Assembly: GCA_965223505.1 (NCBI GenBank)
Contig: CBDCWP010000007.1
Coordinates: 1 to 64,000, forward strand
Reading direction: 5' to 3'
From: Planctomycetota bacterium
GTDB taxonomy: Bacteria > Planctomycetota > PLA2 > JAEUHO01
DNA: 64,000 nt
A program made the translations under genes and the position numbers. Of this stretch, positions 4 to 54,379 are shown piece after piece (position 1 is the first letter of the stretch; each line of letters starts with the position of its first letter). Below the pieces are notes generated by a model. It had not been told where the DNA came from, did no database searches, and saw only the letters and a list, made by a program, of their open reading frames with translations.

Positions 4-717
4 CTAGCGGGTCGCTCGCCAGCGGCGAGCAGCCGCGCCCCAGTCGATGTGCTTACAGAAGCGATCGACGTATGTGGCCTTGTCCGTGCGGTAGTCGACG
101 TAGAACGCGTGTTCGTACATGTCGACGAGCAACAGCGGCCGGCCGAACCACAACGGACCGACGTCGTGCGCGTCGGAGAGGACGTTGTACAGCCGGTCGT
201 TCAGCGGGTGCGCCGCCAGCATCGCCCATCCGCTGCATGAGAGCGCGCACGCTTCGAAGTCGGCCCGCCACCGATCCACCGAGCCGAAGCGGGCTTTCAG
301 CGCCGCAGTCAGGTCCTTCCCCGGTTCGCCTGCATCCGCACGCATGCCTTCGAAGTAGAGCTCGTGCAAGATCACCGAGTTGGCCTTCGCCGACTGGGTC
401 TTGCCCAGCGCGCGCCGCGCCGCGCGATCGGTCACGCCTTCGCCGCCGTAGAGCCGCTTCTCGATGCCCTCGAGCCCTTTCAGTGCACCGCCGTAGTGCT
501 TCGTGTGGTGCAGTCCGATCTGTTCCTTCGACAGGAATCCGGGCAGCGCCTCGTAGCGCAGGGGAACGAGTTCGCCCGATCGGAGTGCGGTCGTCGGCTC
601 GGCCTCCTCGGCGCGCGCGGCGCGCACGTCACCGAGCCAAGCGGCCGACGTTGCTGCAATGCCGGCGAGCGTGGCGCTGCCGATCAGGTCTCGTCGCGTG
701 AAGTTGCGTGCATCCAT
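4..717 (-). CDS. Fe/Mn superoxide dismutase family protein with Tat signal peptide
   Basis: Likely start MDARNFTRRDLIG (twin-arginine) at 717. SOD motifs LHHTKHYGG, LHELYF, FGSVDRW, SGWAML and DMYEHAFYVDY. The upstream part of the 542-aa track ORF is shadow of the + strand gene. Confidence 0.85.
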   Translation of the reverse strand: MDARNFTRRDLIGSATLAGIAATSAAWLGDVRAARAEEAEPTTALRSGELVPLRYEALPGFLSKEQIGLHHTKHYGGALKGLEGIEKRLYGGEGVTDRAARRALGKTQSAKANSVILHELYFEGMRADAGEPGKDLTAALKARFGSVDRWRADFEACALSCSGWAMLAAHPLNDRLYNVLSDAHDVGPLWFGRPLLLVDMYEHAFYVDYRTDKATYVDRFCKHIDWGAAARRWRATR

Positions 718-825
718 GGCGATCTCCTCGGCCCGAGCACACCACGGCCGCCGGCCGACGTCCTCTGACAAAGTCTTCAGGAACTCGTAAGGCCCGCCCG
801 GCTGCTCGCCGGGGAAGATGTGCAG

Positions 826-1935
826 ATGCAAGCGAACCGATACGTCTTCCGGATCACCGTCCTCGTACTTCTCGCGTCGTTGACGCCGGCGGCTGCCGAA
901 GAGCCGGCCGAGCCCGATCTCGCGACCGCCATCGCCGAGAGTCCTCTCGAGCTGTGGGAGGCGGTCACGCGCGGCGGGGCGCGAAACGGCGCGACGCTGC
1001 GCGCGGGTTTCGCGCTCGACACGAACGGCAGGCTCGTCCTGCGCATGCTCGTTCGCACTGTGAAGGACGAGGCGGAACGCTTCGAAGAGTGGCGCGGGCC
1101 GCTCTACGACCAGGTGTGGGCGCCCCGGCGCCGCGTCCTCGCGGACGGGGAGGAGATCGCGAACGCGAGGAGACTCGACGACCTCGTGCGCAAGAGCAAG
1201 CGCACGCTCAGCACCGCGGTGACCTCGTCGCGCGGCGTGCAACGTGAAGACGAGTCCTGGCCCGGCGTGCCCGTGTCCATCGAGCCGACACTTCGAGACG
1301 GCGAGGTGCGCACCGAGGCGATCGTGATCATCGACAGTCGGTACTACCGGGTCACCCAGATCCTCGACTCCGGCATCATCCTCTCGACGAAGCCCGCGGA
1401 GGAACCGGTGCGCATCGAAGCCGATCCGCCGCGCACGTTGCCCGAGCTCACCGTTCCCGACGGAATCTGGGTCAACGCCGGGGAGCCGCCGACGCTGGCG
1501 AGCTGGAAGGGGAGTCCCATCCTCGTCGCCGTCGCCGATCCGGGGTGAGACACCTGACACAACATCACGCCGAACCTGGTCAGGTGGCACAAGCAATACG
1601 CATCCGCTGGATTGAAGATCGTCGCCGTTCAAGGCGCGAAACCCCGCCTCTCCACGAAGGATCCGCAGGAGGAGATCCGCAAGACCAAGGAGTGGGTCGA
1701 GCGGAAGGACCCTCCGTTCCCCGTTCTCGTCGATCCGACCGCGGCCTACTACGACGCGATCGGCTTCCCCGCGGGACCGTACCCGGTTCTCGTCCTCGTC
1801 GATCCGAAAGGAATCGTCGTCTGGATGGGGGGGACCGGCATTCGCCGGGAAGCGGAGGTGTGTGACGGCGCGCTTGCGCGCCTCATGAGCGGAGCGAAGA
1901 AAAAAGCCGCTGGCTCGGACGCGCTGCCGCGCTGA
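826..1935 (+). CDS. Exported TlpA/thioredoxin-fold selenoprotein with UxxU active site (two in-frame TGA = Sec) and an N-terminal PepSY-like region
   Basis: Track ORFs 820-1548 and 1612-1935 are in the same frame. The joining sequence reads LASWKGSPILVAVADPG-TGA(1546)-DT-TGA(1555)-HNITPNLVRWHKQYASAGLKIVAV, followed by FPVLVDP and YPVLVLVDPKGIV, a TlpA-like fold with the TGAs at the CxxC position. Signal peptide at the N-terminus and a SECIS-like hairpin downstream. Start at ATG 826 or GTG 820. Confidence 0.85.
1569..1588 (+). promoter_or_regulatory. Bacterial SECIS element (Sec insertion hairpin)
   Basis: GCC-GA-ACCT-GGTC-AGGT-GGC begins 11 nt after the second TGA. It has the same GGUC apical loop, a bulged 5' arm and the same 11-nt offset as the E. 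coli fdhF SECIS. Confidence 0.75.
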
Positions 1936-1946
1936 TCCTTGGGCGC

Positions 1947-2633
1947 GTGCGCATCCTGGTGATCGAGGACGAGGAGAAGATCGCGGCGGCCCTTGCGGAG
2001 GGTCTCGCGTCGGCCGGTTACGACGTCGCGGTCGCGAACACGGGTGAGGACGGGTTCTTCCGTTTCGTCTCCCGGCCGTGCGATCTCGTCATTCTCGACT
2101 GGATGCTCCCGGGTCGCGACGGCATCGAGATCCTGGAGACCATCCGGAAGCAGGGACGCGACACGCCCGTGCTCCTGCTCACGGCGCGCGACGCGGTGGA
2201 GGACCGCGTGCGCGGTCTCGACGCCGGCGCGGACGACTACCTCGTCAAGCCGTTCGCGTTTCCCGAGCTCGAGGCGCGGGTTCGCGCCTTGCTGCGACGC
2301 GCGCCCGCCGACACGCAGCAACGCTTCGAGGTGGGCGACCTGCATCTCGACGTTGCGCGGCGCCGTGTGGAGCGCGACGGACGGCCGGTCACGTTGACGC
2401 TGCGCGAGTTCGACCTGCTGCACTATCTCATGCAGCACGCCGGGCACGTCGTCTCGCGGGAGATGCTCGCCAAGGACGTGTGGGAGGAGACCGCGCGGGC
2501 GACGCCGCTCGACAACGTCATCGACGTCCACATGGCCCGACTGCGCAAGAAGGTCGACACGGATCCCGACGCGCGCCTGATCGAGACCGTGCGCGGCGTT
2601 GGATTCGTGCTGCGCGCGGGAGACGACGTATGA
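1947..2633 (+). CDS. OmpR/CusR-family response regulator
   Basis: MRILVIEDE, LDWMLPG, LTARD and DDYLVKPF receiver motifs plus winged-helix IETVRGVGF. Confidence 0.95.
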   Translation: MRILVIEDEEKIAAALAEGLASAGYDVAVANTGEDGFFRFVSRPCDLVILDWMLPGRDGIEILETIRKQGRDTPVLLLTARDAVEDRVRGLDAGADDYLVKPFAFPELEARVRALLRRAPADTQQRFEVGDLHLDVARRRVERDGRPVTLTLREFDLLHYLMQHAGHVVSREMLAKDVWEETARATPLDNVIDVHMARLRKKVDTDPDARLIETVRGVGFVLRAGDDV

Positions 2634-3946
2634 GCCTCGTGCCGCGCAGCATTCGCTCCCGTTTGGCACTCGGCTACGCGGCGGCCGTGGCGGTTACGGT
2701 GCTCGTCTACGCCGGCGTCGTCTACGGGTTCACCCGATCGGCGCTGATCGACCGGCTCGACGCGGCCCTTCGAGACGACTTCGAGCGCGCGGAGCACGCG
2801 TTCGAGATCGACGTCACCGGTGCGCTCAGCTGGAAGGAGCCCGAGCGCTTGGGGCACCACGACACGGCGGAGGCGCCGTGGACGCAGGTCCTGCATCCGA
2901 AGGGCGGCCCAGGCCTGCTCCGTCCGTCGAACGCCGACGTCGGCGACGCGTCGTATCGGGTCTTCGAGGAGGACTACTTGATCGCGGGCGAGACGTACCG
3001 CATCCGCGTCGGCCGGTCCATGGCTCCGATGGAGGCGGAGTTGAGCGGCCTGCGCACGCTCCTGGCGTTGTGCCTGCTGCCGGTGGTCGGGTTCGCGTGG
3101 CTGGGCGGGCTCCTGCTCGCGCGGCGTGCGCTTCAGCCCGTCCAGGACATGACGGAGCGCGCCCGGCACATCGGCGCCGAACGCTTGTCCGAGCGACTGC
3201 CGGTCGCGAACCCCGACGACGAGCTCGGGCGTCTCGCGACGGTGTTCAACGCAGCGTTCGAGCGCATCGAGGCGGGGTTCGAGCGACTGCGTGGGTTCAC
3301 GTCGGATGCCGCGCACGAGCTTCGCACGCCGCTCGCGGCGCTTCGAACCGTGGGGGAGGTCGGACTGGGGTCGTCGCAGGACGTCGAAGCGCACCGCGAG
3401 GTGATCGCGAGCATGCTGGAAGAGACCGCACGGCTGACCCGCCTGGTCGACGAGCTGCTGGAGCTCTCACGGGGCGACGCAAGGATGGCGGGGATCGAGA
3501 AGGCGCCGGTCGACCTCGCGGAGCTGTCGCGTTCGGTTTGCGAGCAGCTCGAAGTGCTCGCGTCGGAACGCGGGCAGGAGCTGGTCGTCGAAGGCGGCGG
3601 GGCGACCGTGCCCGGCGACGCGAACATGCTTCGCAGAGCGGTCACGAATCTCGTCGACAACGCGATTCGACACGGGCCGACGTCGTCCACGGTCCGGGTG
3701 CGGGTCGAGGAAGCAGCTGCGGAGGCCGTGATCGTGGTGGCGGACGAGGGAACGCCGATCCCGGCGAACCATCGGGAACGGATCTTCGATCGCCTCTACC
3801 GCATCGACGCGGCGCGTGCCGGCGCCGGAACGGGGCTGGGCCTCTCGCTCGCGGCCCAGGCAATCGAGCTCCACGGCGGCCGCATCGAGATCGAAGCGCG
3901 CGCCGAGGGCAACGCGTTTCGCGTGACCCTGCCCCGCGGCGGGTGA
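2630..3946 (+). CDS. HAMP-domain sensor histidine kinase (CusS/heavy-metal-sensor-like)
   Basis: ATGA overlap with the regulator stop codon. Two TM helices, HAMP domain, H-box AHELRTPL, N-box NLVDNAIRH and G-box GTGLGL. Confidence 0.92.
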   Translation: MSLVPRSIRSRLALGYAAAVAVTVLVYAGVVYGFTRSALIDRLDAALRDDFERAEHAFEIDVTGALSWKEPERLGHHDTAEAPWTQVLHPKGGPGLLRPSNADVGDASYRVFEEDYLIAGETYRIRVGRSMAPMEAELSGLRTLLALCLLPVVGFAWLGGLLLARRALQPVQDMTERARHIGAERLSERLPVANPDDELGRLATVFNAAFERIEAGFERLRGFTSDAAHELRTPLAALRTVGEVGLGSSQDVEAHREVIASMLEETARLTRLVDELLELSRGDARMAGIEKAPVDLAELSRSVCEQLEVLASERGQELVVEGGGATVPGDANMLRRAVTNLVDNAIRHGPTSSTVRVRVEEAAAEAVIVVADEGTPIPANHRERIFDRLYRIDAARAGAGTGLGLSLAAQAIELHGGRIEIEARAEGNAFRVTLPRGG

Positions 3947-6657: not shown

Positions 6658-9645
6658 CTACTCGAGGTCCCGGCGGCGAAAGACGAGTCGGAAGCCGCAG
6701 TCACCGCCGGCGTGCTCGGGATCGCGAGGGTGTCGCGCCGTGGTCGAGAACTCCCACCCCCGGCCCCGCAGCACGGATCCCCCGGCGGCCATGCCGCTGA
6801 AGCCTCGGGTGCCATCCCAATCCATCCACTCGATCACGCTGCCGCACAGGTCGTAGACGCCGGCCGGCGACTCGTCGATTGGAAAGCTCATCACGGGGTC
6901 GTATCCGCGAAACTCGTGTGTGACGTGAAGCGAGCTCACCCACTTGGGCCGAAACACGTCGCCGTGGGCGAAGCCGGCGAACGAGTTCCCGTGCGCGGCC
7001 CCGCGATACTCCTCGTGGGTCGGGATGCGATACGGCCTGCCGTCGCGCGCTCCCCGCCAGGCCGCGTACGCCTTCGCGTCGGCCAGATCGAGTCCCCGCA
7101 CCGGACGGTCGGGTCGCCACGTCGGCGGAAGCTCGAAACGGCCGTGTTCGTTGCGAATCCAGTGTCCGCCGGAGGCGGTGTTGAGCTGGTCGTCGCGTGG
7201 GTAGCGGATGTACCGGCCCTCTTCGAGGGCCGCGTCGATCTCCGCGAGGACCGCGGGGTCGTTGAGGAATTCGAGATACTCGGCGTTCGTCACCTCCCGC
7301 TCCTGCATCCAAAACGCGTCTTCGTCCGTACCGCGGACCGAGATGTAGACGAATCCCGGCGGCGTGGTCCCGATCGGGAGGGGCTTCAAGTCGTACCACT
7401 CGTCCCATCCGCCGCGGATCTTGCGCTGCAGGATCTGGTCTTCGTATCCCTTCCTGCGAAGGAGGAAGACATAGCGTCCGGGTTCGAGCGGATACGCTTC
7501 CGTCGGCGTGATGCCGATCCGGCTGCCGGGAGACGCGAACAGCGGCACGGCGGTCGTTCGTACGACGAGGCCGACCGGAAGCTGCATCTCGCGAACCACA
7601 CCGTCCTGGTAGACGCGGGCGGGCACGTTACCGCGCTCGGCGACGGCGGCCGCCGAGAGCACCTCGATGGGGGGCCGGTTCCAGCGCACCTCGAACTCGC
7701 GATCGTCCCTTGCGAAGACGTAGCGATGGGGACCGGGCGCGTCGGGCGGTCTGCCGTCGAGCATCAGCCGAATGCGACGCTTCCCGATGGCGACGAGGCG
7801 GTCCCCCCGGCGCACCTCGCCGTGCGAATCGGCGGCGAGGAAGGTGGCCTCGATCGGATGCCCGAACACCTCCAGAATCTGATCGCCCTGACGTAGATCA
7901 CCCGCGCCGCGCACGACACGAAGCGTCCACGTTCCCGGCAGGACCGGCGTCTCGCCGCGCACCGGCACCGGGACCAGCCGCCGGTCCCCGCCCGGGTCGA
8001 GGTCCCGCTGCACGTCGTGACGAAACGCGTGCAGCTCGAAACCCGCGGGGGTCGTGGACGCCCTGATCGAGCCGGACTTCAACAGCGCGCCGGTGTACCG
8101 CCCGTCGGGATCGTACTTGGCGATCTCGGCGCGATAGCGACGCACCGCCGCCTCGTTGGCCTGCGTGCGTGCTTCCTCCATGCGCTCCAACCAGAGCCGA
8201 GCCGTCACCTCGTCGACGCCGGGGACGTCGCGATCCCGTTGCTGCGCCTGATGCAGCAGCTCCAACACCCGGCTGAACATCAGGTCGCGCTCGGTGCCGG
8301 CCTTCTCACCCCGGTCCGTCATATCTTCCAGCTGACGGTCCTGCTCTTCGGTGGTGTGTCTGGACTCGTACCGCAGGAGCAGCTCACGAAAGCCCTCGTC
8401 GTAGTCCTTGCTGTCGATGCGCGCTTCTCGATAGTCGGCCAGCACCCCGCGCGCCCGCTCGACGAGTTGCAGCGCCTCCTGCCTCCGCTCGGCAGCTCGT
8501 TGCGCGCTGCCGTAGATCAGCAGCGCCACGATGGTCAGGACCGCGACCAGCAGGCCGGATACGGCGGTCGCCGTCACGGGTCTGCGACGTGTCCACTTTC
8601 GCAGCCGGGTGATCGGACCCGGTGCTCGCGCTCGGACGGGGCGCGATCGCGAGAGCGCCTCGAGGTCGTCGGCGAACGCCGACATGTCGTCGTAGCGCGC
8701 CGACGGCTTCTTCTCCATGGCCTTGAGGACGACGAGGTCGGCGTCGCGCGGCACGGATGGGTTGAGTCGCGACGGCGGCACGGCGTCTTCCAGCAACACC
8801 TGGCGGAAGACGCCTTCCAGCGTCTTGCCACGGAAGGGCAGGCCGCCCGTCACGCACTCGTACGCCGTGATGCCGAGCAGGTACACGTCGGTGCGGGCGT
8901 CGACGTCGCCGCCCTTGATCTGCTCGGGCGCGGCGTAGAGCGGCGAGCCCGCGAAGCTCTTGGTGAGGCGGGTGGCTTCGAGGCCGGTCATGTGGGCGAT
9001 GCCGAAGTCCAACAGCACGGCCCGGTCGTCCGGCGTGATGAGCACGTTGCTCGGCTTGACGTCGCGATGGACGATGCCCTGCTTGTGCGCGTACGCGAGT
9101 GCCCGGGCGAGCTGGGCCATCCACTGAAACAGGCGGTGGATGGGGATCGCGGTTCCTTCCTCGCGCAGGATCTCGGCGAGGGACCTGCCCGGAACGAACT
9201 CCATCGCGATGAACTGAACGTCCTGGTCCTCGGCGAGCTCGTAGACGCTCACGACGGCGGGGTGACGCAGCTGCGCGATCGCGCGCGCTTCGCGGCGGAA
9301 GCGCCGCAGCATGGTCGCCGAGGCGCCGAGCTCCGGACGCACGATCTTCAGCGCCACGATTCGACCGAGCGCCTCTTGCTCGGCCAGGAACACCGTTCCC
9401 ATACCACCCGTTCCCAGGCGGCGAACGAGTCGATACCCGCCGAGCCGCTCGAAGGGGAGTTCACCGTCGGCGTCGGACGACGCGGCGACGTACTCGCGAT
9501 GAAGCGCGTGGACGAGCTCGCGCATCTCGGTATCGACGTCGGGGTAGCGTGCGAGATAGAGATCGGGTTCTTCGGGACAACCGTCGAGGCAGGTCGCCAG
9601 ATACGCGTCGTAGACGTCCGTTGGATCGCGCGGGTCGGCGGCCAT
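6658..9645 (-). CDS. Membrane Ser/Thr protein kinase with C-terminal formylglycine-generating-enzyme (FGE-sulfatase) domain
   Basis: Start MAADPRDP. Kinase motifs LGTGGMGTV, VALK, HRDVKPSN, DFG and APEQ. One TM helix. FGE motifs EVTNAEYLEF, YRIPTHEEY, GVYDLCGSVIEW and GFRLV. Confidence 0.9.
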   Translation of the reverse strand: MAADPRDPTDVYDAYLATCLDGCPEEPDLYLARYPDVDTEMRELVHALHREYVAASSDADGELPFERLGGYRLVRRLGTGGMGTVFLAEQEALGRIVALKIVRPELGASATMLRRFRREARAIAQLRHPAVVSVYELAEDQDVQFIAMEFVPGRSLAEILREEGTAIPIHRLFQWMAQLARALAYAHKQGIVHRDVKPSNVLITPDDRAVLLDFGIAHMTGLEATRLTKSFAGSPLYAAPEQIKGGDVDARTDVYLLGITAYECVTGGLPFRGKTLEGVFRQVLLEDAVPPSRLNPSVPRDADLVVLKAMEKKPSARYDDMSAFADDLEALSRSRPVRARAPGPITRLRKWTRRRPVTATAVSGLLVAVLTIVALLIYGSAQRAAERRQEALQLVERARGVLADYREARIDSKDYDEGFRELLLRYESRHTTEEQDRQLEDMTDRGEKAGTERDLMFSRVLELLHQAQQRDRDVPGVDEVTARLWLERMEEARTQANEAAVRRYRAEIAKYDPDGRYTGALLKSGSIRASTTPAGFELHAFRHDVQRDLDPGGDRRLVPVPVRGETPVLPGTWTLRVVRGAGDLRQGDQILEVFGHPIEATFLAADSHGEVRRGDRLVAIGKRRIRLMLDGRPPDAPGPHRYVFARDDREFEVRWNRPPIEVLSAAAVAERGNVPARVYQDGVVREMQLPVGLVVRTTAVPLFASPGSRIGITPTEAYPLEPGRYVFLLRRKGYEDQILQRKIRGGWDEWYDLKPLPIGTTPPGFVYISVRGTDEDAFWMQEREVTNAEYLEFLNDPAVLAEIDAALEEGRYIRYPRDDQLNTASGGHWIRNEHGRFELPPTWRPDRPVRGLDLADAKAYAAWRGARDGRPYRIPTHEEYRGAAHGNSFAGFAHGDVFRPKWVSSLHVTHEFRGYDPVMSFPIDESPAGVYDLCGSVIEWMDWDGTRGFSGMAAGGSVLRGRGWEFSTTARHPRDPEHAGGDCGFRLVFRRRDLE

Positions 9646-9879
9646 GCGAACAGGATATCGCATCCGCGACTGCCGGGCGGGGGACCCGGTCCGAACGCAA
9701 TGACCCGCCGTCCACGTCGAGCGGCCACGCCGCCGGCACAGCCGAGTGCACGGCAATTGCGGAAGAAACCGACGCCGCCAATCAAAGCTGCGGCAAGAAG
9801 CACAGCCGTGGGTCGAACTCGCGGATTGGCGGCGAAAAGTCACTCGCTCGTTTGCGCCCAGGGGTGTGGAATATACGAG

Positions 9880-12597
9880 ATGGCGCTGACCTCCACCTTC
9901 AGCCGCCGCGTGAGCGTGGCGGTCGCCGGATGCCTGGTCGCCGCCGCCGCCTGTGTCGCGTGGGAGCTCTTCACACCGGAGGAGTGGGAGGCACCCGCCG
10001 AGATACGCATCGGGACGGCACGCGAAGGCGGCGCCTACCTGCCGATCGGCAACGCCTTCAAGCCCATCCTCGAACGCGAGTTCGAGGGGTCGTCCGTCTC
10101 GGTGCACGCGACGGGCGGGAGCGTCGCGAATCGTCTGCTCCTCGAAGACGGGCTGCTCGAGCTCGCGATACTCCAGAGCGACGTCGAACCGAGCGACAAG
10201 GTTCGCATCGTTCGTCCATTGCACGACGAGTTCCTGCAAATCGTCGTGAACACCGATGCCATCGCCGACGCGAAGTCGATCGTGGACCTGAAAGGCACAC
10301 GCATCTCCGCCGGACCGAAGGGCAGCGGCTCGCGGCGCCTCGTCATGGATCTGCTCACGTGGTACGACGTCGAGCTCGAGCTCGACGATGTGGCCAGCCC
10401 CGCGGAAGAGCAACGGCGCCTCCTGGCCGGTGAGATCGCGGCGATCTGTCGCGTGGCCGGTAGTCCCGACAACTTGATCAAAGAAATTCTGGAAGACGAC
10501 CGGATGACCTTGATTCCGGTCGAGCCGGGAACGGATGACAAGGCGCCTCGGAGGCTCGACGCATTCGGCGGCCCCAATCTCTTCGAGCCGGTCGAGCTGC
10601 CGAATTCGTACAGGCGGCAACCTCCGGGTCTCTGGACCGTGAACGTCACGGCGCTCTTGGTGGCGCATGCCGATCTCGACGACGGCTTCGTCTACGCATT
10701 GGCGAAGCTCTCGAAGGACGATCTCGCCGAGATGCGCAAGGACAAGAGTGTGCGCGTCCATCTCGGCGAGCTGCGGCCTTGCGAGGACGACTACAGTCAT
10801 CCGTACCACCACGGCGCCAAGGCATTCCACGAAGGGCAAAGCGTGGCGCACTCGGACCTGCTGGCTTGTCTGATGCGCCTGGGGCTCGCGGCCGTGTTCG
10901 CTGTGCTCGCGGTGGTCCTCTTCACGCGCGAGTTCCGACGCGTGCGTCGCATGAAGGCGTACGAGCGTAGCGTACCGAAGGGCGACCTCGACCCGTCGAA
11001 ACCGTTCGACCTCTTTCTCTCTTACAGCTCGCGCAGCAAGCGGGCGCGCAACGCCGTGAGGGTCATCGCCGAGGAGTTCGAGCCCGAGGTGACGTGCTGG
11101 TACGCACCCCGCAATGTCGCCTTCGGCGACGAGTGGACGGAGGGCATCGCGAACGCCATCGCGAGAACGCAGCAGGCGCTCGTCTTGATGTTCACGAAGG
11201 AGGCGTGTCGATCGAAGCACATCGCGCGCGAGCTACGACTCGCCGACAAACGCGACCTTAGAATCCTGCCGTTCTGGATGGAAGATGCGGAACCGTCGGT
11301 CTCCGACAACAAGGTCATCTACACGCTCGCGGGCCTTCAGCGCATCGACGCGTCGGGCCCGCGTGACGTCGCCATCCGAGCCCTGCACGACGCCGTTCGA
11401 CGGCCCGCGTCTCACGAGGATCTGCTTCCCGACCCTGTGATCCTCAAACGTCGCTCGGCTCCTTGGATGGTAGGCGCAGCCGCCGTCCTGTTGCTCGCGC
11501 TGTTTCCGCTGTGGAAGCCGTGGACGAAAGACGCCGTCGTCGAGGCGCCGGGGCCCGCGTTGACAAAGCCGGAACGCGAACAGCTGCTTCTCGGACAGCT
11601 CATCTACGAGTGGGCGTTCGAGGGCCAGCGCCCGGGTGTCACGTACGAGGTCCGTCGTACGAACGGTCGCGAGACCGCCACCTCCGAACGAATCAGCGTG
11701 TCCGCCTTCGAGGAACGGGCGCTTCACGGGACGATCAAGTGGCAGGTGCGAGCATTCGTGCCGGGATCGGACGGCGAGGTCGTCGCCACCGCGTGGTCCA
11801 CGCCGTCTCGCGTCGAGTTCTACAAAGACACGCTGCAGAAGATACGGATGCGGGGCGAGGTCGTCGTCGCCATCAGTGACGTGGTGAATCGCAAGAGAGA
11901 GGCCAATCCGGAGCTCCGTCTCATCGATCTTGCACTCAACACGGATCCGAACGAGAAGGTCCTCGTGTTGTATGAAAGCCGGTCGTTCGCCGACCTGAGC
12001 GGTTTGTTCAAAGGAGACGAGGCAGCCGAATTCGACGTCATGGCCGCTCGAATCTCGATCCGCGAGGACCGTGTAACGGGGCCCAACGCGTGGCGCGTCG
12101 CGTTCACCGACCCGCTGGATCAGTATCCACAGGCGTTCGTGTACCTTCCCGACAAGCAGCTGTGTGTCGGCCCCAATGCGTCCGGGCCCTGCCGTGTCGG
12201 TGTCGTCGAGGGGACGACGAACGAGGCGTTCATGGACGAGCTCCTGGCGGCGCGGAAACCGGAAGGCGCCGAGGTGGTCACGTTCACGGGCAGGACCCAC
12301 GTATACAAGCGGATGTACAACGCGTTGCGCGCGGGAGAGCTGGACCTCTTGACGGTCGACCGACCGTTTGCCGTACAGCTGCAGAAGGAGGCTGCGCAGA
12401 AAGACGACGTGACGCTTGCCGTGAGCACCGTCGACCAAGTTCTGCCGAGTCCGCCGCGGGACGAGAGGATCGCGCTCGCGGTCAAGTCGGCCGATCAACG
12501 CCTTCGCGACCGACTCGACGCGGCACTGAAGGAGCATCGCGCCGAGATCGATCGGATGTTCGACGAGCTTCAGCCGCGACCGATGCTGATCGACTGA
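9880..12597 (+). CDS. Multidomain membrane protein: TAXI-type solute-binding domain - TM - TIR domain - TM - family 3 solute-binding domain
   Basis: TAXI motifs IGTAREGGAYLPIG, TGGSVAN, AILQSD and GPKGSGS. TIR motifs FDLFLSYSS, CWYAPRNVAFGDEWTEGIANAI and SKHIARELRLA. C-terminal ISIREDR...FTDP...VGVVEGTTNE...LRDRLDAAL. Confidence 0.8.
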   Translation: MALTSTFSRRVSVAVAGCLVAAAACVAWELFTPEEWEAPAEIRIGTAREGGAYLPIGNAFKPILEREFEGSSVSVHATGGSVANRLLLEDGLLELAILQSDVEPSDKVRIVRPLHDEFLQIVVNTDAIADAKSIVDLKGTRISAGPKGSGSRRLVMDLLTWYDVELELDDVASPAEEQRRLLAGEIAAICRVAGSPDNLIKEILEDDRMTLIPVEPGTDDKAPRRLDAFGGPNLFEPVELPNSYRRQPPGLWTVNVTALLVAHADLDDGFVYALAKLSKDDLAEMRKDKSVRVHLGELRPCEDDYSHPYHHGAKAFHEGQSVAHSDLLACLMRLGLAAVFAVLAVVLFTREFRRVRRMKAYERSVPKGDLDPSKPFDLFLSYSSRSKRARNAVRVIAEEFEPEVTCWYAPRNVAFGDEWTEGIANAIARTQQALVLMFTKEACRSKHIARELRLADKRDLRILPFWMEDAEPSVSDNKVIYTLAGLQRIDASGPRDVAIRALHDAVRRPASHEDLLPDPVILKRRSAPWMVGAAAVLLLALFPLWKPWTKDAVVEAPGPALTKPEREQLLLGQLIYEWAFEGQRPGVTYEVRRTNGRETATSERISVSAFEERALHGTIKWQVRAFVPGSDGEVVATAWSTPSRVEFYKDTLQKIRMRGEVVVAISDVVNRKREANPELRLIDLALNTDPNEKVLVLYESRSFADLSGLFKGDEAAEFDVMAARISIREDRVTGPNAWRVAFTDPLDQYPQAFVYLPDKQLCVGPNASGPCRVGVVEGTTNEAFMDELLAARKPEGAEVVTFTGRTHVYKRMYNALRAGELDLLTVDRPFAVQLQKEAAQKDDVTLAVSTVDQVLPSPPRDERIALAVKSADQRLRDRLDAALKEHRAEIDRMFDELQPRPMLID

Positions 12598-17393: not shown

Positions 17394-17470
17394 GGGCGTA
17401 TAGCTCAGTCGGCTAGAGCGCCGCCCTGATAAGGCGGAGGTCCCTGGTTCAAGTCCAGGTACGCCCACCA
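17394..17470 (+). tRNA. tRNA-Ile (GAT)
   Basis: GGGCGTA/TACGCCC acceptor stem, anticodon arm CCGCC-CTGATAA-GGCGG, GGTTCAAGTCC T-loop and encoded CCA. Confidence 0.97.
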
Positions 17471-17772
17471 CTCAGTTTCGTGGTCGTAATTGGACCAGGG
17501 ACCGGGTGGGGGTAGGTCGCGAGAGCGACCGTAGGGGGTCACAGGACCCCCTGAGAACGCTACCCCCATTGGGCAGCGCCGCAGGCGCCTGCCCTGGTTC
17601 AAGTCCAGGTACGCCCACCACTCAGTTTCGTGGTCGTAATTGGACCAGGGACCGGGTGGGGGTAGGTCGCGAGAGCGACCGTAGGGGGTCACAGGACCCC
17701 CTGAGAACGCTACCCCCATTGGGCAGCGCCGCAGGCGCCTGCCCTGGTTCAAGTCCAGGTACGCCCACCACT
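17442..17772 (+). repeat. 150-bp perfect tandem repeat (about 2.2 copies), each unit containing the tRNA-Ile 3' end
   Basis: CCCTGGTTCAAGTCCAGGTACGCCCACCACT occurs at 17442, 17592 and 17742. The intervening segments are identical. Confidence 0.95.
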
Positions 17773-17793
17773 TCCTATTCTTTGCGACCGACC

Positions 17794-17870
17794 GGGGGCT
17801 TAGCTCAGCTGGCTAGAGCGCCGGCTTTGCAAGCCGGAGGTCAGGGGTTCGAATCCCCTAGCCTCCACCA
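17794..17870 (+). tRNA. tRNA-Ala (TGC)
   Basis: GGGGGCT/AGCCTCC acceptor with G3:U70, anticodon arm CCGGC-TTTGCAA-GCCGG and encoded CCA. Confidence 0.97.
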
Positions 17871-51009: not shown

Positions 51010-51086
51010 GGGCGCATAGCTCAGCTGGCTAGAGCGCATGCTTCACACGCATGAGGTCACAGGTTCGAGTCCTGTTGCGCCCACCA
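51010..51086 (+). tRNA. tRNA-Val (CAC)
   Basis: GGGCGCA/TGCGCCC acceptor, anticodon arm CATGC-TTCACAC-GCATG and encoded CCA. Confidence 0.97.
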
Positions 51087-51089
51087 CGT

Positions 51090-51626
51090 TCATCGCTCGA
51101 AGAACCGGGCCCAACGGGCCTCTTGGAGTCGCCCGCAGCGCTTTTCTCTCGGCTGGTTCTGGGCAACGAAGTGCGGCGAAGAGCAGGTTCCGGACAGGAG
51201 CGGCACATCTGCGGCACGTTCCACGGCGCTGTGGAGGTCCCGCGAGCGCAAATGCGTGTAGTGCTTCATCGTCAACGAAATGTCGCTATGCCTCGCCAAC
51301 TCCTGCGCGGTCCGAGGATGCACGTCCGCCTGGGCGAGCCGCGTCACGAAGCTGTGTCGCAGCGCATGGCGATCCAGAACACGCCCTTCCTCGTCCTCGT
51401 GCGGGATCTTCGCGTAGTCGATGTCTCGTCGAAAGCACCGATGGGAAGGGAACAGGCGTGCAGGGATGACAGGATCCTTCGCGCCATCCGGGTGCCCCTG
51501 CGCCCGAGTGGCGGCGCGGTAGGCCTTGAGTGCAGCAACAAGATCAGCGCGCAGGGGAATGCGCTGCTCGCGCCGGGACTTCGCGTGTCTGGCGATGATG
51601 CGTATCCGCGACTCCATCTTCCTCAA
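51090..51626 (-). pseudogene. Tyrosine recombinase/integrase, C-terminal fragment
   Basis: AKSRREQRIPL, HALRHSF and LARHSDISLTMKHY. N-terminal domains absent. Points toward tRNA-Val. Confidence 0.85.
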
Positions 51627-51949
51627 CTCGCTTGTGATACGCCTTGCTCAGACGGTAGTCACATGTCACCCCGAGCAACCTCGATAGTTTCGCGGCTCGG
51701 AGCCGCTTGCGAATGTCAACCATCAGCCTTGTCCGCAGCTCGTCCCAACGCGAAATGGACGGCCCCCGGGCGGGGACAAGCATGGCGCCCTTTCCCCGGC
51801 TGATCAGGCCGGCGCGGGGCCGTCCCCTACATCTTCTCCCGGGCGGTGGACAGGCCCTGCGTTGCTTGGAAGCCCTTTGCGCTGGCCCTGGTAGCGGCCA
51901 GTTGGCTACCCTTTCAGGCCTAGATGCTGCTGTGGGAGGTGAGCGTGAG

Positions 51950-52643
51950 GACAGTCTGGTGCGCATTGGTGGTTGTCGTAACGCTCGTCGTGTCAGCACC
52001 GCAGGTAACGACACCACGCAAAGGAGGAACGACGTGACCCACCACGAACAGCGTACGCCTTGGGGCGACGCACTGGAAGCGCTCAGCGAGAACGGGTTCG
52101 ACGGCATGGCTGAGGCGATGCGGGTGCTGGTGAACGAGGCCATGAAGGTCGAACGCAGTGCCTTCCTCGGCGCCGAGCCCCACGAACGCACGGATCAGCG
52201 CCGCGGCTACGCCAACGGCTTCAAGCGCAAGCGCGTCAGAACCCGCTTGGGCGAGATCGACGTCCAGGTGCCCCAGGTTCGCGACGTCGAGGGCGGCGAC
52301 ACGTTCTACCCCTCCAGCCTCGAACGCGGCCAGCGAAGCGAGAGAGCGCTCACGCTGGCCCTGGCGGAGATGTACGTCCAGGGCGTCTCGACGCGGCGTG
52401 TCGAGGCGATCACGAAGGTGCTTTGCAACGGCCTGGAGATCAGCTCCACGAGCGTGTCTCGAGCAGCTGCGCTGCTCGACGAGGAGCTCGAGCGCTGGCG
52501 CACACGTCCGCTCGGCGCGTTCAAGTACCTCGTACTCGACGCTCGCTACGAGAAGGTGCGCCACGGCGGATCGGTGCGCGACTGCGCTGTGCTGATCGCC
52601 ATCGGCGTCGATTCTCACGGCAAGCGCAGCGTGCTGGGAACGG
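51950..52643 (+). mobile_element. IS256-family element remnant (5' part of the transposase)
   Basis: GTG at 52034 after AGGAGG. RRGYANG, PQVRD, EMYVQGVSTRRV and LDARYEKVR, then similarity ends after KRSVLG. Left boundary is approximate. Confidence 0.85.
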
Positions 52644-53191
52644 CTGCAATCTCCGATGAGATCACGCTTGAGTTCGACGTTGACATCACTGAGAAGTTCG
52701 GCGGGTTCGTGGGCGGCCCTGACACCGCTACGCTCTCGATCACGTTCGACACCAGCATTGGGATCAGCATCGAATCAGACCCTGTCGGGACTCTGGCCCA
52801 GTACAAGGAGGCCGTTGCTGGAGACTCTATTGACTGGCTGATCACGTACGACGGTACGGATTACAGCCGCAATGCGACCGAACTTGCAGCGATTCAAGTT
52901 GAGAACGACAACCCGCTCGATGAGATCAAGCTGATCTCCGGAGAGGGTCTGCACATCAGCGTGAAGAACTTCGACGCCGATGCGATCAGTGGGATCGGGT
53001 TGCCTACAACGCTGGATACTGATGACTGGGCAACGACTTTCTTTGAGTTCGAACTCTTCAACGAGTCGGGCGTGGTGACGGATCGCATTCGGGGGACGCT
53101 CACCACGGTAATCCCCGAACCCACATCCCTCGCCCTCCTCGGCCTCGGCGTAGCCGGACTTGCGTGGCGGCGTGGGCGCGCGCGGGACTAG
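52644..53191 (+). pseudogene. PEP-CTERM protein lacking its own start/signal peptide, fused in frame to the IS256 fragment
   Basis: Acidic beta-rich body ending VIPEPTSLALLGLGVAGLAWRRGR. Confidence 0.8.
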
Positions 53192-53193
53192 AC

Positions 53194-53628
53194 ATGGCGA
53201 AGCAAGGTCCGAAGGGAATCCATTTCACTTCACTGCCTCTTACTGAGCCCCCGCCTCACTTCATTCCCGATCTAGTTGGCGTGTTCAAGGCGCACCGCAG
53301 TGAGATCTCAACGGAGGAACTAGAGAAGGGACTGACCAGCGATCAGGTGCTTGCAGTCCTGGGGGACGACCTACGCGAACTCGGGTTCGAGGTAGAGCGC
53401 AGCAAGGCCAAAGCTGACAAGATCGAGCGCCCCGTCTTCTTCGGTGAGGATGGGGTGCCCACACTTCGGTACGAGATCGACGCGTATCACGCTGACTGGC
53501 AATGCGCTCTCGAGGTAGAGGCCGGCCGCGCGTGGATGGGCAACGCTGTATATCGAGACCTCATCCAGGCGGCTGTGATGGTCGGCGTGAAGCACCTGTG
53601 CATCGGCGCTTGGACCTCGAACTTCTGA
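53194..53628 (+). pseudogene. Putative PD-(D/E)xK restriction-endonuclease-like protein truncated by an IS3 remnant
   Basis: EIDAYH...LEVEAGRA...N...RDL resembles a nuclease core. Sequence switches to IS3 orfB DNA at about 53604. Confidence 0.5.
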
Positions 53629-54379
53629 TCGAGCGTGTTCGGCGCTATCGGCAGCGTGTGCTTCGAGTCCGTCGTTCGCCGCCAACGGCGTTTCAGGCGC
53701 GCTGAGATGCCGTTCTTGCGGATCAGGCGCGCCACGCGGTGAACGCCAACCGGCCGCTTCCGTGACTTGAGCTCGGCATGGACGCGCGGACTTCCGTACG
53801 TGCCCCGACTCTCCCTGTGGATCTCGCGGATCTCCCTCACGAGCCGCTGGTTGTCGATCGTGCGTTTGGACGGCGGCCTGGTGCGCCAGGCGTAGAAGCC
53901 GCTGGGCGAGACGCCCAGCAGCAGCTCGGATCGGCACGTTGGCCTTCCCCGCCTCGATCAGCTCGAAGGCTTCGAGCTCTCCTCCCTGGCGAAGAAGGCT
54001 GCGGCTTTTTTCAGGAAGTCCCGCTCCATCCGGAGCCGCTTCACATCCCGCTTGAGCTGCCGCACTTCGGCTTTCTCCGCGGTGGTTAGCGCCTCCGGAG
54101 GACCCTCCCCTGCATCGACCTCAGCCTGCTTGACCCAGTTCCTCAGCACGTTCGGGTGGATGTCCAGATCCCGCCCGACCCTCGCGTAGTTCCCAACGGC
54201 CTTGTAGAGCCGGACGGCCTCCGCCTTCTGCTGGGCCGTGAACGTGCGCTTCTTCCTCTGTCCCATCGGTATACTCCTCGACCAGTATCCTACTCCGCAG
54301 GGTAGGAAGGATGGGATCTCGGCATCGTGGGATCTTTCCACCCCCACGGGTAGGTGTCCACGAAACCGGGTCAACTCCA
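53604..54379 (-). mobile_element. IS3-family element remnant (IRL, orfA, truncated orfB)
   Basis: IRL TGGAGTTGACCCGGTTTCGTGGACAC from 54379. orfA 54266-53958 (RTFTAQQKAEAVRL...LRNWVKQ...MERDFLKKAAAFF) with an A6G run at 54005-54011. orfB start GVSPSGFYAW...TYGSPRVHAEL...TTDSKH...APNTL. DDE domain and IRR missing. Confidence 0.9.

Follow-up and report, generated by a model that had tools for sequence, protein, structure and literature searches.

We analysed a 64,000-nt stretch of DNA (67% G+C; hereafter, the window) from the start of contig CBDCWP010000007.1 of a Planctomycetota bacterium (assembly GCA_965223505.1), in which a gene for a thioredoxin-like protein carries two in-frame UGA codons and, shortly past the second, a hairpin with a GGUC loop. 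The hairpin is a candidate selenocysteine insertion sequence (SECIS) for both codons. Bacterial insertion of selenocysteine (Sec, U) is usually taught as a matter of one UGA, one adjacent hairpin and a fixed distance. The gene lies between a divergent superoxide dismutase (SOD) gene and the two genes of a two-component system, and the positions of all these features are collected in Table 1.

Table 1. Genes and RNA features at the selenoprotein locus (window positions)
Feature	Position	Strand	Remarks
Fe/Mn superoxide dismutase, divergent	4..717	-	Pfam Sod_Fe_C, Sod_Fe_N; also beside the gene in the related locus L075
Predicted selenoprotein gene	820..1935	+	371 codons from GTG 820; translated with TGA as U; stop TGA 1933-1935
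Alternative start, ATG	826	+	Start of database fragment P0002
N-terminal part	826..1545	+	Separate 240-aa protein under genetic code table 11; P0002 is 100% identical
First in-frame UGA	1546..1548	+	Residue 243; first Cys of CxxC
Long helix of the free RNA	1551..1586	+	CACCUGAC (1551-1558, contains the second UGA) pairs with GUCAGGUG (1579-1586)
Second in-frame UGA	1555..1557	+	Residue 246; second Cys of CxxC
Spacer, second UGA to hairpin base	1558..1568	+	11 nt
Candidate SECIS hairpin	1569..1588	+	gccgaacctggtcaggtggc; GCC / GA / ACCT / GGTC / AGGT / GGC
Parts of the candidate SECIS			Lower stem 1569-1571/1586-1588; bulge 1572-1573; upper stem 1574-1577/1582-1585; GGUC loop 1578-1581
OmpR-type response regulator	1947..2633	+	Pfam Response_reg, Trans_reg_C; begins 11 nt past the selenoprotein stop
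Sensor histidine kinase	2630..3946	+	Pfam HAMP, HisKA, HATPase_c; start overlaps the regulator's stop

A two-domain gene with in-frame UGA codons at a CxxC position

Read with TGA as Sec, the frame runs, in order, through a signal-peptide-like N-terminus, an N-terminal domain without a known family and a C-terminal ResA/TlpA-like thioredoxin domain with the motif U-D-T-U. We found two Pfam matches that extend across both TGAs: AhpC-TSA (PF00578), the best family, scored 46.4 bits against a cut-off of 26 over residues 207-335, and Redoxin scored 35.1 bits against a cut-off of 26.6 over residues 220-336. Third-position G+C (GC3) in the same frame was 0.88 upstream and 0.81 downstream of the TGAs.

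A phmmer comparison with the sequences of the PDB placed ...ADPG-U-DT-U-HN... opposite ...WGTW-C-EP-C-KK... of Bacillus ResA (1st9). Hence, both TGAs occupy the cysteine positions of CxxC. Similarly, 23 single-domain relatives in a 50-row alignment had CxxC in the two UGA columns, followed by a conserved P-x-L-V-R-W. The AlphaFold2 model of the read-through protein (predicted local distance difference test score, pLDDT, 90.0; predicted template-modelling score, pTM, 0.84) set residues 243-246 between a strand (234-239) and helices (244-247 and 250-263), which is the position of the thioredoxin active site, and Foldseek matched DipZ (E 5.9e-10), ResA (template-modelling score, TM, 0.78), a DsbE (TM 0.86) and TlpA. 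Scores against the curated NCBIfam families were far under their cut-offs (19.3 vs 300 for the ResA-like WAxxUGC selenoprotein NF041054, 23.4 vs 170 for ResA NF002854 and 16.2 vs 230 for TlpA NF047696); hence, the protein is related to these families but does not belong to them. We conclude that 820/826-1935 is one real gene, with both UGAs in frame inside one thioredoxin-fold domain.

Upstream of this domain, a hydrophobic, signal-like helix at residues 5-19 suggests, from its sequence, a signal peptide and an exported protein. After this helix, the N-terminal ~200 residues form two alpha+beta repeats (pLDDT 86.6 in a model of this part). The N-terminal part matched no Pfam family, its open reading frame (ORF) under table 11 found no usable match in the ESM Atlas, and a fold search of the PDB gave a single match at E<=0.001, a putative lipoprotein (4exr) that is marginal (E 7.6e-4, TM 0.34/0.47). 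The secondary structure of the domain reads as PepSY-like, an assignment that is not established.

A full HMMER scan of 1.84 billion representatives returned 428 proteins at E<=0.001, of which 150 were listed. Among these 150 matches, at least 16 homologues besides the window's own fragment aligned to residues ~10-242 and had C-terminal ends of the form ..[T/A][D/N/S]PG, exactly at the position of the first TGA. At least six full-length or nearly full-length two-domain relatives among the matches listed had Cys at the first-UGA position, in the context C-E-x-E-C in five (P0006, P0007, P0014, P0016, P0022) and C-E-S in P0042. At the other site, the C-terminal fragment P0023, which begins M-C-H-G..PHLVRW, has Cys at the second-TGA position. 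Hence, the family probably includes UxxC besides UxxU forms. The spacing of the redox pair also differs between branches, being CxxxC (C-E-x-E-C) in the two-domain Cys relatives and U-x-x-U in the window protein.

Gene callers cut the window gene into two database entries, P0002 and P0004, and they appear to cut the two-domain family systematically at the first UGA. Since the cut falls there, the two-domain family is invisible in protein databases. A homologue search with the read-through protein returned only its own N-fragment and one weak match. Literature titles and abstracts, the level at which we mainly searched, included none naming a two-domain ..DPG-U family. This family, and its association with SOD and a two-component system, may be new.

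At the DNA level, a degenerate pattern for G-x-P-x-[hydrophobic]-[V/I/M]-x-x-[T/A]-[D/N]-P-G-TGA matched 81 stretches, and tblastn of these 81 loci identified 80 as unrelated and one as a true relative, L075, from a Planctomycetota metagenome-assembled genome (MAG). A profile-guided scan of one genome per species gave 17 pattern matches, none confirmed as related loci, and the comparative DNA evidence consists of two sequences, the window gene and L075. Read through, L075 gives IADPG-U-DT-U-YGITPHLVRWHEQY with both TGAs present, and its protein likewise scores above the Pfam gathering score for thioredoxin-fold domains. Identity to the window gene is 45% for the protein, over 362 aligned codons, and 58% for the DNA.

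The neighbourhood is conserved as well. Both loci (window 4-3946; L075 75-4139) have the same order of four genes, with SOD divergent, then redoxin, regulator and kinase, the last three being 11-15 nt apart or overlapping, and the neighbours are much more alike than the fast-evolving redoxin gene, being 70% (SOD), 74% (response regulator) and 63% (histidine kinase) identical. The N-terminus of the SOD contains RRDL, a twin-arginine-like motif that may mark the enzyme for the twin-arginine translocation (Tat) pathway.

Other origins of the UGAs were rejected. An error or a pseudogene does not fit, as both TGAs are also in L075 and at least 16 of the listed homologues end in ..PG before the first UGA. 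Global reassignment of TGA does not fit either: since 20 of the 38 called genes in the window stop at TGA, the selenoprotein gene included, a code change is excluded. The gene ends in TGA at both loci (2126-2128 in L075). Because the gene's own stop is TGA, a single mRNA would contain UGAs of both meanings, two for Sec and one for termination. The gene thus has in-frame UGAs opposite Cys in its homologues, UGAs kept in L075 and a coding signal on both sides; pairing of UGA with Cys in homologues is described as the standard signature of a selenoprotein (PMC13188914).

Conservation and folding of the downstream hairpin

We found that nucleotide conservation between the window gene and L075 peaks at the UGAs and the hairpin. 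Over the 15 codons from the first TGA, 40 of 45 bases are identical to L075, which is rank 1 of 347 such windows (mean 26.2, standard deviation 4.6). Identical residues also keep the same codon there in 10 of 11 cases, vs 76 of 155 gene-wide (Fisher p 0.0038). Immediately before the first TGA, the D, P and G codons all differ at the third base, synonymously. With blastn, only 1515-1637 of the selenoprotein gene could be aligned between the window and L075, and the neighbouring genes aligned over their length.

Within 1546-1590, the five differences between the two genes lie in the spacer (1558, 1561, 1562) and in the bulge (1572, 1573), with none in the stem or loop. Arg255 is encoded by AGG in both genes; this codon is rare (47 of the 1298 Arg codons in the window's genes), and it pairs with CCU of the 5' arm. 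Over 75 nt starting at the first UGA, enumeration gave five hairpins in the window and four in L075, and the one with the GGUC loop is the only one common to both in place and size. These results agree with two points bearing on a first-pass annotation of this DNA: it had seen no second hairpin that could serve the first TGA, and it had made conservation of the hairpin in TGA-containing homologues a test of its proposal. L075 has the same stem and loop sequence and departs from the window hairpin at the two bulge bases alone.

In the bacterial SECIS consensus, as set out in PMC13188914, the upper stem is 4-16 bp long and carries an apical loop of 3-9 nt with G at loop position one, two or both; the loop is 16-37 nt from the UGA, and the minimum free energy is <= -7.5 kcal/mol. 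The candidate has a 4-nt loop on an upper stem of 4 bp in the window and 4-6 bp in L075, and the loop is GGUC in both genes. Both UGAs lie within the consensus distance, since the loop starts (1578) 29 nt past the first TGA and 20 nt past the second. The predicted energy of the hairpin is -5.7 kcal/mol for 20 nt, -7.2 for 26 nt and down to -7.4 with flanks, and the extended L075 form reaches -7.8.

A GGUC tetraloop closed by four pairs is rare, with only 20 in both strands of the window; by our own arithmetic, the chance of one such tetraloop in a given 22-nt allowed interval is about 0.003. A repeat element was considered for the hairpin and rejected, since the window contains its 12-mer just once. 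By itself, the hairpin does not exceed chance (see below); the rarity of the GGUC loop and the nucleotide conservation in L075 do.

In E. coli K-12 fdhF (L082), 11 nt separate the Sec TGA from GG-T-TGCA-GGTC-TGCA-CC. The window hairpin is like this element in that four pairs close its GGUC tetraloop, with one or more bases unpaired in the 5' arm and more pairs below, in its 11-nt spacer and in its similar predicted stability. Unlike in fdhF, two UGAs precede the window hairpin; its base is 20 nt past the first, and the 11-nt spacing of fdhF holds for the second UGA only. In addition, the window bulge is 2 nt long and not conserved, the two stems are unrelated in sequence, the nearer UGA is 20 nt from the start of the loop where fdhF has 18 nt, and binding of SelB to the window hairpin is only predicted. 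The likeness to fdhF that the first-pass annotation had drawn from an 11-nt offset, a 5' bulge and a GGUC loop is accurate, and its positions for the TGAs and the hairpin, its 11-nt spacer and its loop distances of 20 and 29 nt are all right.

Candidate decoding of both UGAs and the alternatives

With a probability of roughly 0.7, we read this gene as encoding an exported U-x-x-U selenoprotein, with both UGAs recoded under the single in-coding, fdhF-like SECIS at 1569-1588. The UGAs are in frame at CxxC and kept in L075, and the hairpin is the only one that the two genes share, all of which supports the earlier proposal of one SECIS serving both UGAs.

Several observations weigh against this reading. 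First, the comparative evidence has limits: the stems are identical in both DNA sequences, with compensatory changes in 0 of 12 pairs, and there is no covariation because there are only two sequences and their stems are the same. The residues L-V-R-W-H, encoded by the 3' half of the hairpin, are also conserved as protein in CxxC relatives, so part of the conservation is at the protein level. The 5' bulge differs as well, being GA in the window and UC in L075, which folds best as a continuous 6-bp stem. Second, folding does not set the hairpin apart. Its z-score against shuffles is about -0.3 to -0.8, indistinguishable from them; 305 of 600 random TGAs of the window are likewise followed by a hairpin that passes a loose SECIS consensus; and its -5.7 to -7.4 kcal/mol is at or just short of the -7.5 limit, for an energy model that may differ from that of bSECISearch. 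However, the validated minimal hairpin of fdhF does no better by the same method (-4.2 and -5.7 kcal/mol, z -0.7 and -1.6), so thermodynamics is undecided either way. A permissive Rfam search of 1500-1650 gave nothing at E<=10 and no SECIS match. Third, selA, selB, selD and tRNA-Sec are absent from the 64-kb window (ARAGORN for the tRNA; Pfam), a gathering-threshold Rfam search of the whole window found only 3 tRNAs, and a crude GC3-based scan of the window found no other candidate gene with an in-frame TGA. Fourth, E. coli work reportedly constrains the UGA-to-hairpin spacing narrowly, and decoding of the first UGA at 20 nt is for this reason disfavoured for an E. coli-like SelB. Finally, the minimum-energy structure of the free RNA is not the hairpin but the long helix of Table 1, at -15.1 kcal/mol in both the window gene and L075, and even within 1558-1600 of the window an alternative of -7.4 kcal/mol competes.

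Some of these points also fit an absence of recoding, in which the gene would be split or dead, translation would end at 1548 and the hairpin would be a chance structure in G+C-rich coding DNA. Gene callers do split the gene at this place (P0002/P0004), the hairpin by itself is not above chance, and the window holds no Sec machinery. However, a stop at 1548 would cut the thioredoxin fold at its active site, and the coding signal runs on in frame past the TGAs. L075 keeps both TGAs, the downstream domain and the hairpin, with synonymous sites frozen only here; and the common end residue of the 16 or more listed homologues, together with the UGA/Cys pairing, fits a selenoprotein. We therefore regard an absence of recoding as very improbable.

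The long helix takes the same 3' arm as the SECIS hairpin, and the two are mutually exclusive. The 3' arm GUCAGGUG has two possible partners because (C)ACCUG is directly repeated, at 1551-1556 and 1573-1578, and both pairings are possible in L075 too. In its 20-nt loop, the long helix has no inner hairpin common to both genes. The first-pass annotation had asked for a folding check, and the outcome is mixed: the hairpin folds as described, but the free RNA prefers the long helix with the same 3' arm.

The long helix could itself be the selected element, either as a recoding signal for the first UGA or as a cause of pausing or occlusion around the second. It is the most stable structure of the free RNA in both genes, it beats shuffles in the window (z -2.67, 4/200), its sole change keeps the pairing (the closing C-G becomes U-G in L075), and both genes use the same D and T codons between the UGAs. 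However, the L075 helix is not better than shuffles (z -0.47), and the 5' arm is largely set by the D, T and U codons anyway. This arm starts 2 nt past the first UGA and contains the second. From that position and the ribosomal footprint given below, the helix must lie within the ribosome, already melted, during the decoding of either UGA. We consider selection for the long helix quite unlikely.

Returning to recoding of both UGAs under the hairpin, we infer SelB use, Sec at both sites, an order of RNA refolding, export and a physiological role as follows. The ribosomal footprint extends about 15 nt from the codon in the P site. When the A site holds the first UGA, the mRNA channel would contain the bases up to about 1557; the competing long helix would thereby melt, and its 3' arm would be freed for the SECIS hairpin. 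When the second UGA takes that place, the channel would end just short of 1569, and the hairpin would stand just outside the mRNA entrance. The hairpin would be as near to the first UGA as possible, because it is at the nearest distance from the second UGA that a folded SECIS allows (the fdhF spacing). It would remain folded during the 9-nt move from the first to the second UGA, and SelB-GTP-Sec-tRNA would be tethered there for both decoding events, with either a second complex or the same SelB reloaded.

For E. coli, 30-40% recoding per UGA, early recruitment of SelB to the SECIS and weak competition by release factor 2 (RF2) are reported (Kotini et al., PMC4513850), and these properties make a wait at the second UGA plausible. 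The yield of protein with Sec at both sites might be roughly a tenth. The product would carry a selenol pair able to form a diselenide. Since its gene has a conserved position beside a putatively exported SOD and a two-component system, a role in envelope redox defence or sensing is indicated.

The distance of the first UGA from the hairpin, 9 nt beyond the fdhF spacing, also fits a hairpin that is a SECIS for one UGA alone. In that case, a selC*-type tRNA (tRNA-ReC) would insert Cys at the other UGA, or near-cognate read-through would place Trp there, and the protein would be of the U-x-x-C or C-x-x-U kind. The family member P0023 has Cys at the second position, and tRNA-ReC-like genes are reported in about 56% of the genomes with UXXU hydrogenases vs about 2.3% of other Sec-type genomes, where either UGA may be Cys (PMC13582414). 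However, both TGAs are kept in genes just 58% identical, although one base change (to TGC or TGT) would give Cys, and no selC*-type tRNA lies within the 64-kb window. Hence, we consider a single Sec unlikely.

A more elaborate form of the double-Sec proposal joins several claims. A ribosome at the first UGA would melt the helix that buries the second UGA and so create the SelB hairpin on demand, for use twice within three codons, and the protein would stand for a distinct family of exported diselenide oxidoreductases. This family would comprise at least 16 further clusters ending in ..DPG-U; its proteins would join a tandem alpha+beta N-domain to a TlpA-like domain and be coupled to SOD and a two-component system. 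Taken jointly, this whole set of claims is improbable. If the on-demand hairpin is real, the gene would be a natural system in which to measure the speed of SelB reloading on one SECIS.

Known systems and other features of the window

Other selenoproteins combine two nearby UGAs with one SECIS. For SelL, Shchedrina et al. 2007 (PNAS) are said to have described a bacterial SECIS inside the coding sequence, placed where it could serve both UGAs. A single SECIS of SelL acts on two UGAs two codons apart (PMC4989117), and reports of SelL cover marine bacteria in addition to animals (PMC2397514). By these descriptions, the window protein is like SelL in having UxxU in place of CxxC in a thioredoxin/Prx-like fold and one SECIS for two UGAs. 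It differs from SelL by a signal-like N-terminus and by ~200 further N-terminal residues that form an extra domain. The closest relative of the window protein is from a Planctomycetota MAG, and its best structural matches are ResA, DipZ and TlpA.

A second group is that of the Prx-like thiol:disulfide oxidoreductase selenoproteins, described as PF00578 proteins with UxxC or UxxU and 1-2 Sec (PMC13188914, PMC9312934); UxxU sequences of a 'Prx-like 2' family are reported from ocean metagenomes (PMC2398784). The window protein is like these, by description, in its best family (PF00578), its UxxU motif, its two Sec codons and its lack of a strong homologue among sequenced genomes. The passages that describe these proteins do not mention a two-domain build, a ..DPG-U signature or a link to SOD and a two-component system.

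In the UXXU-type Group 4 [NiFeSe] hydrogenases, decoding of both UGAs under one SECIS is proposed and the mechanism is left open (PMC13582414, 2026). As described there, these share with the window gene two bacterial UGAs at a CXXC motif, one predicted downstream SECIS and a G at loop position one or two. They differ in that their pair is a Ni ligand, whereas that of the window protein would be a redox dithiol/diselenol.

Among proteins without Sec, the C-terminal domain is like those of the extracytoplasmic thiol-disulfide reductases ResA, TlpA, DsbE (CcmG) and DipZ in fold, active-site position and signal-like N-terminus. Unlike the window protein, those use CxxC, and the window protein is not an equivalog of any of them. 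For the phylum itself, some Planctomycetes are reported to have the full Sec machinery and split thioredoxin-like selenoprotein candidates (PMC4807772, Table S9).

Since SelL, the Prx-like UxxU proteins and the UXXU hydrogenases precede it, the arrangement is not new in kind; it is rare but already described in other bacterial selenoproteins. The first-pass annotation had called a single SECIS for two UGAs mechanistically unusual, which stands as to its rarity but claims more novelty than these precedents leave.

Natural U-x-x-U genes indicate that two UGAs 9 nt apart can share one hairpin, and they thereby bound the tolerance of SelB for spacing. They also raise the question of a second delivery of Sec-tRNA within two codons, which is treated as only a possibility in the account of the hydrogenases (PMC13582414). 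Among such genes, the window gene is a well-defined case: its loop is fdhF-like, its second UGA lies exactly 11 nt from the hairpin, and it has a conserved homologue. It also suggests diselenide chemistry in the envelope of Planctomycetota-like bacteria.

Elsewhere in the window, tRNA-Ile(GAT) and tRNA-Ala(TGC) lie 324 nt apart at 17394-17870, a pair typical of the rRNA spacer, and Rfam found no rRNA in the window. At 6658-12597, two very long ORFs on opposite strands overlap over about 8.2-10.2 kb; Pfam matched a Ser/Thr kinase and FGE-sulfatase on the minus strand, and NMT1-like and TIR domains from about 10.0 kb on the plus strand. At 51010-54347, tRNA-Val(CAC) is immediately followed by three ORFs: a truncated one of the phage-integrase family, one for a Mutator-family transposase, whose end matches PEP-CTERM, and one for an HTH_Tnp_1 transposase. 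Third-position G+C is lower here (0.75-0.80), and the region looks like an insertion site of mobile DNA.

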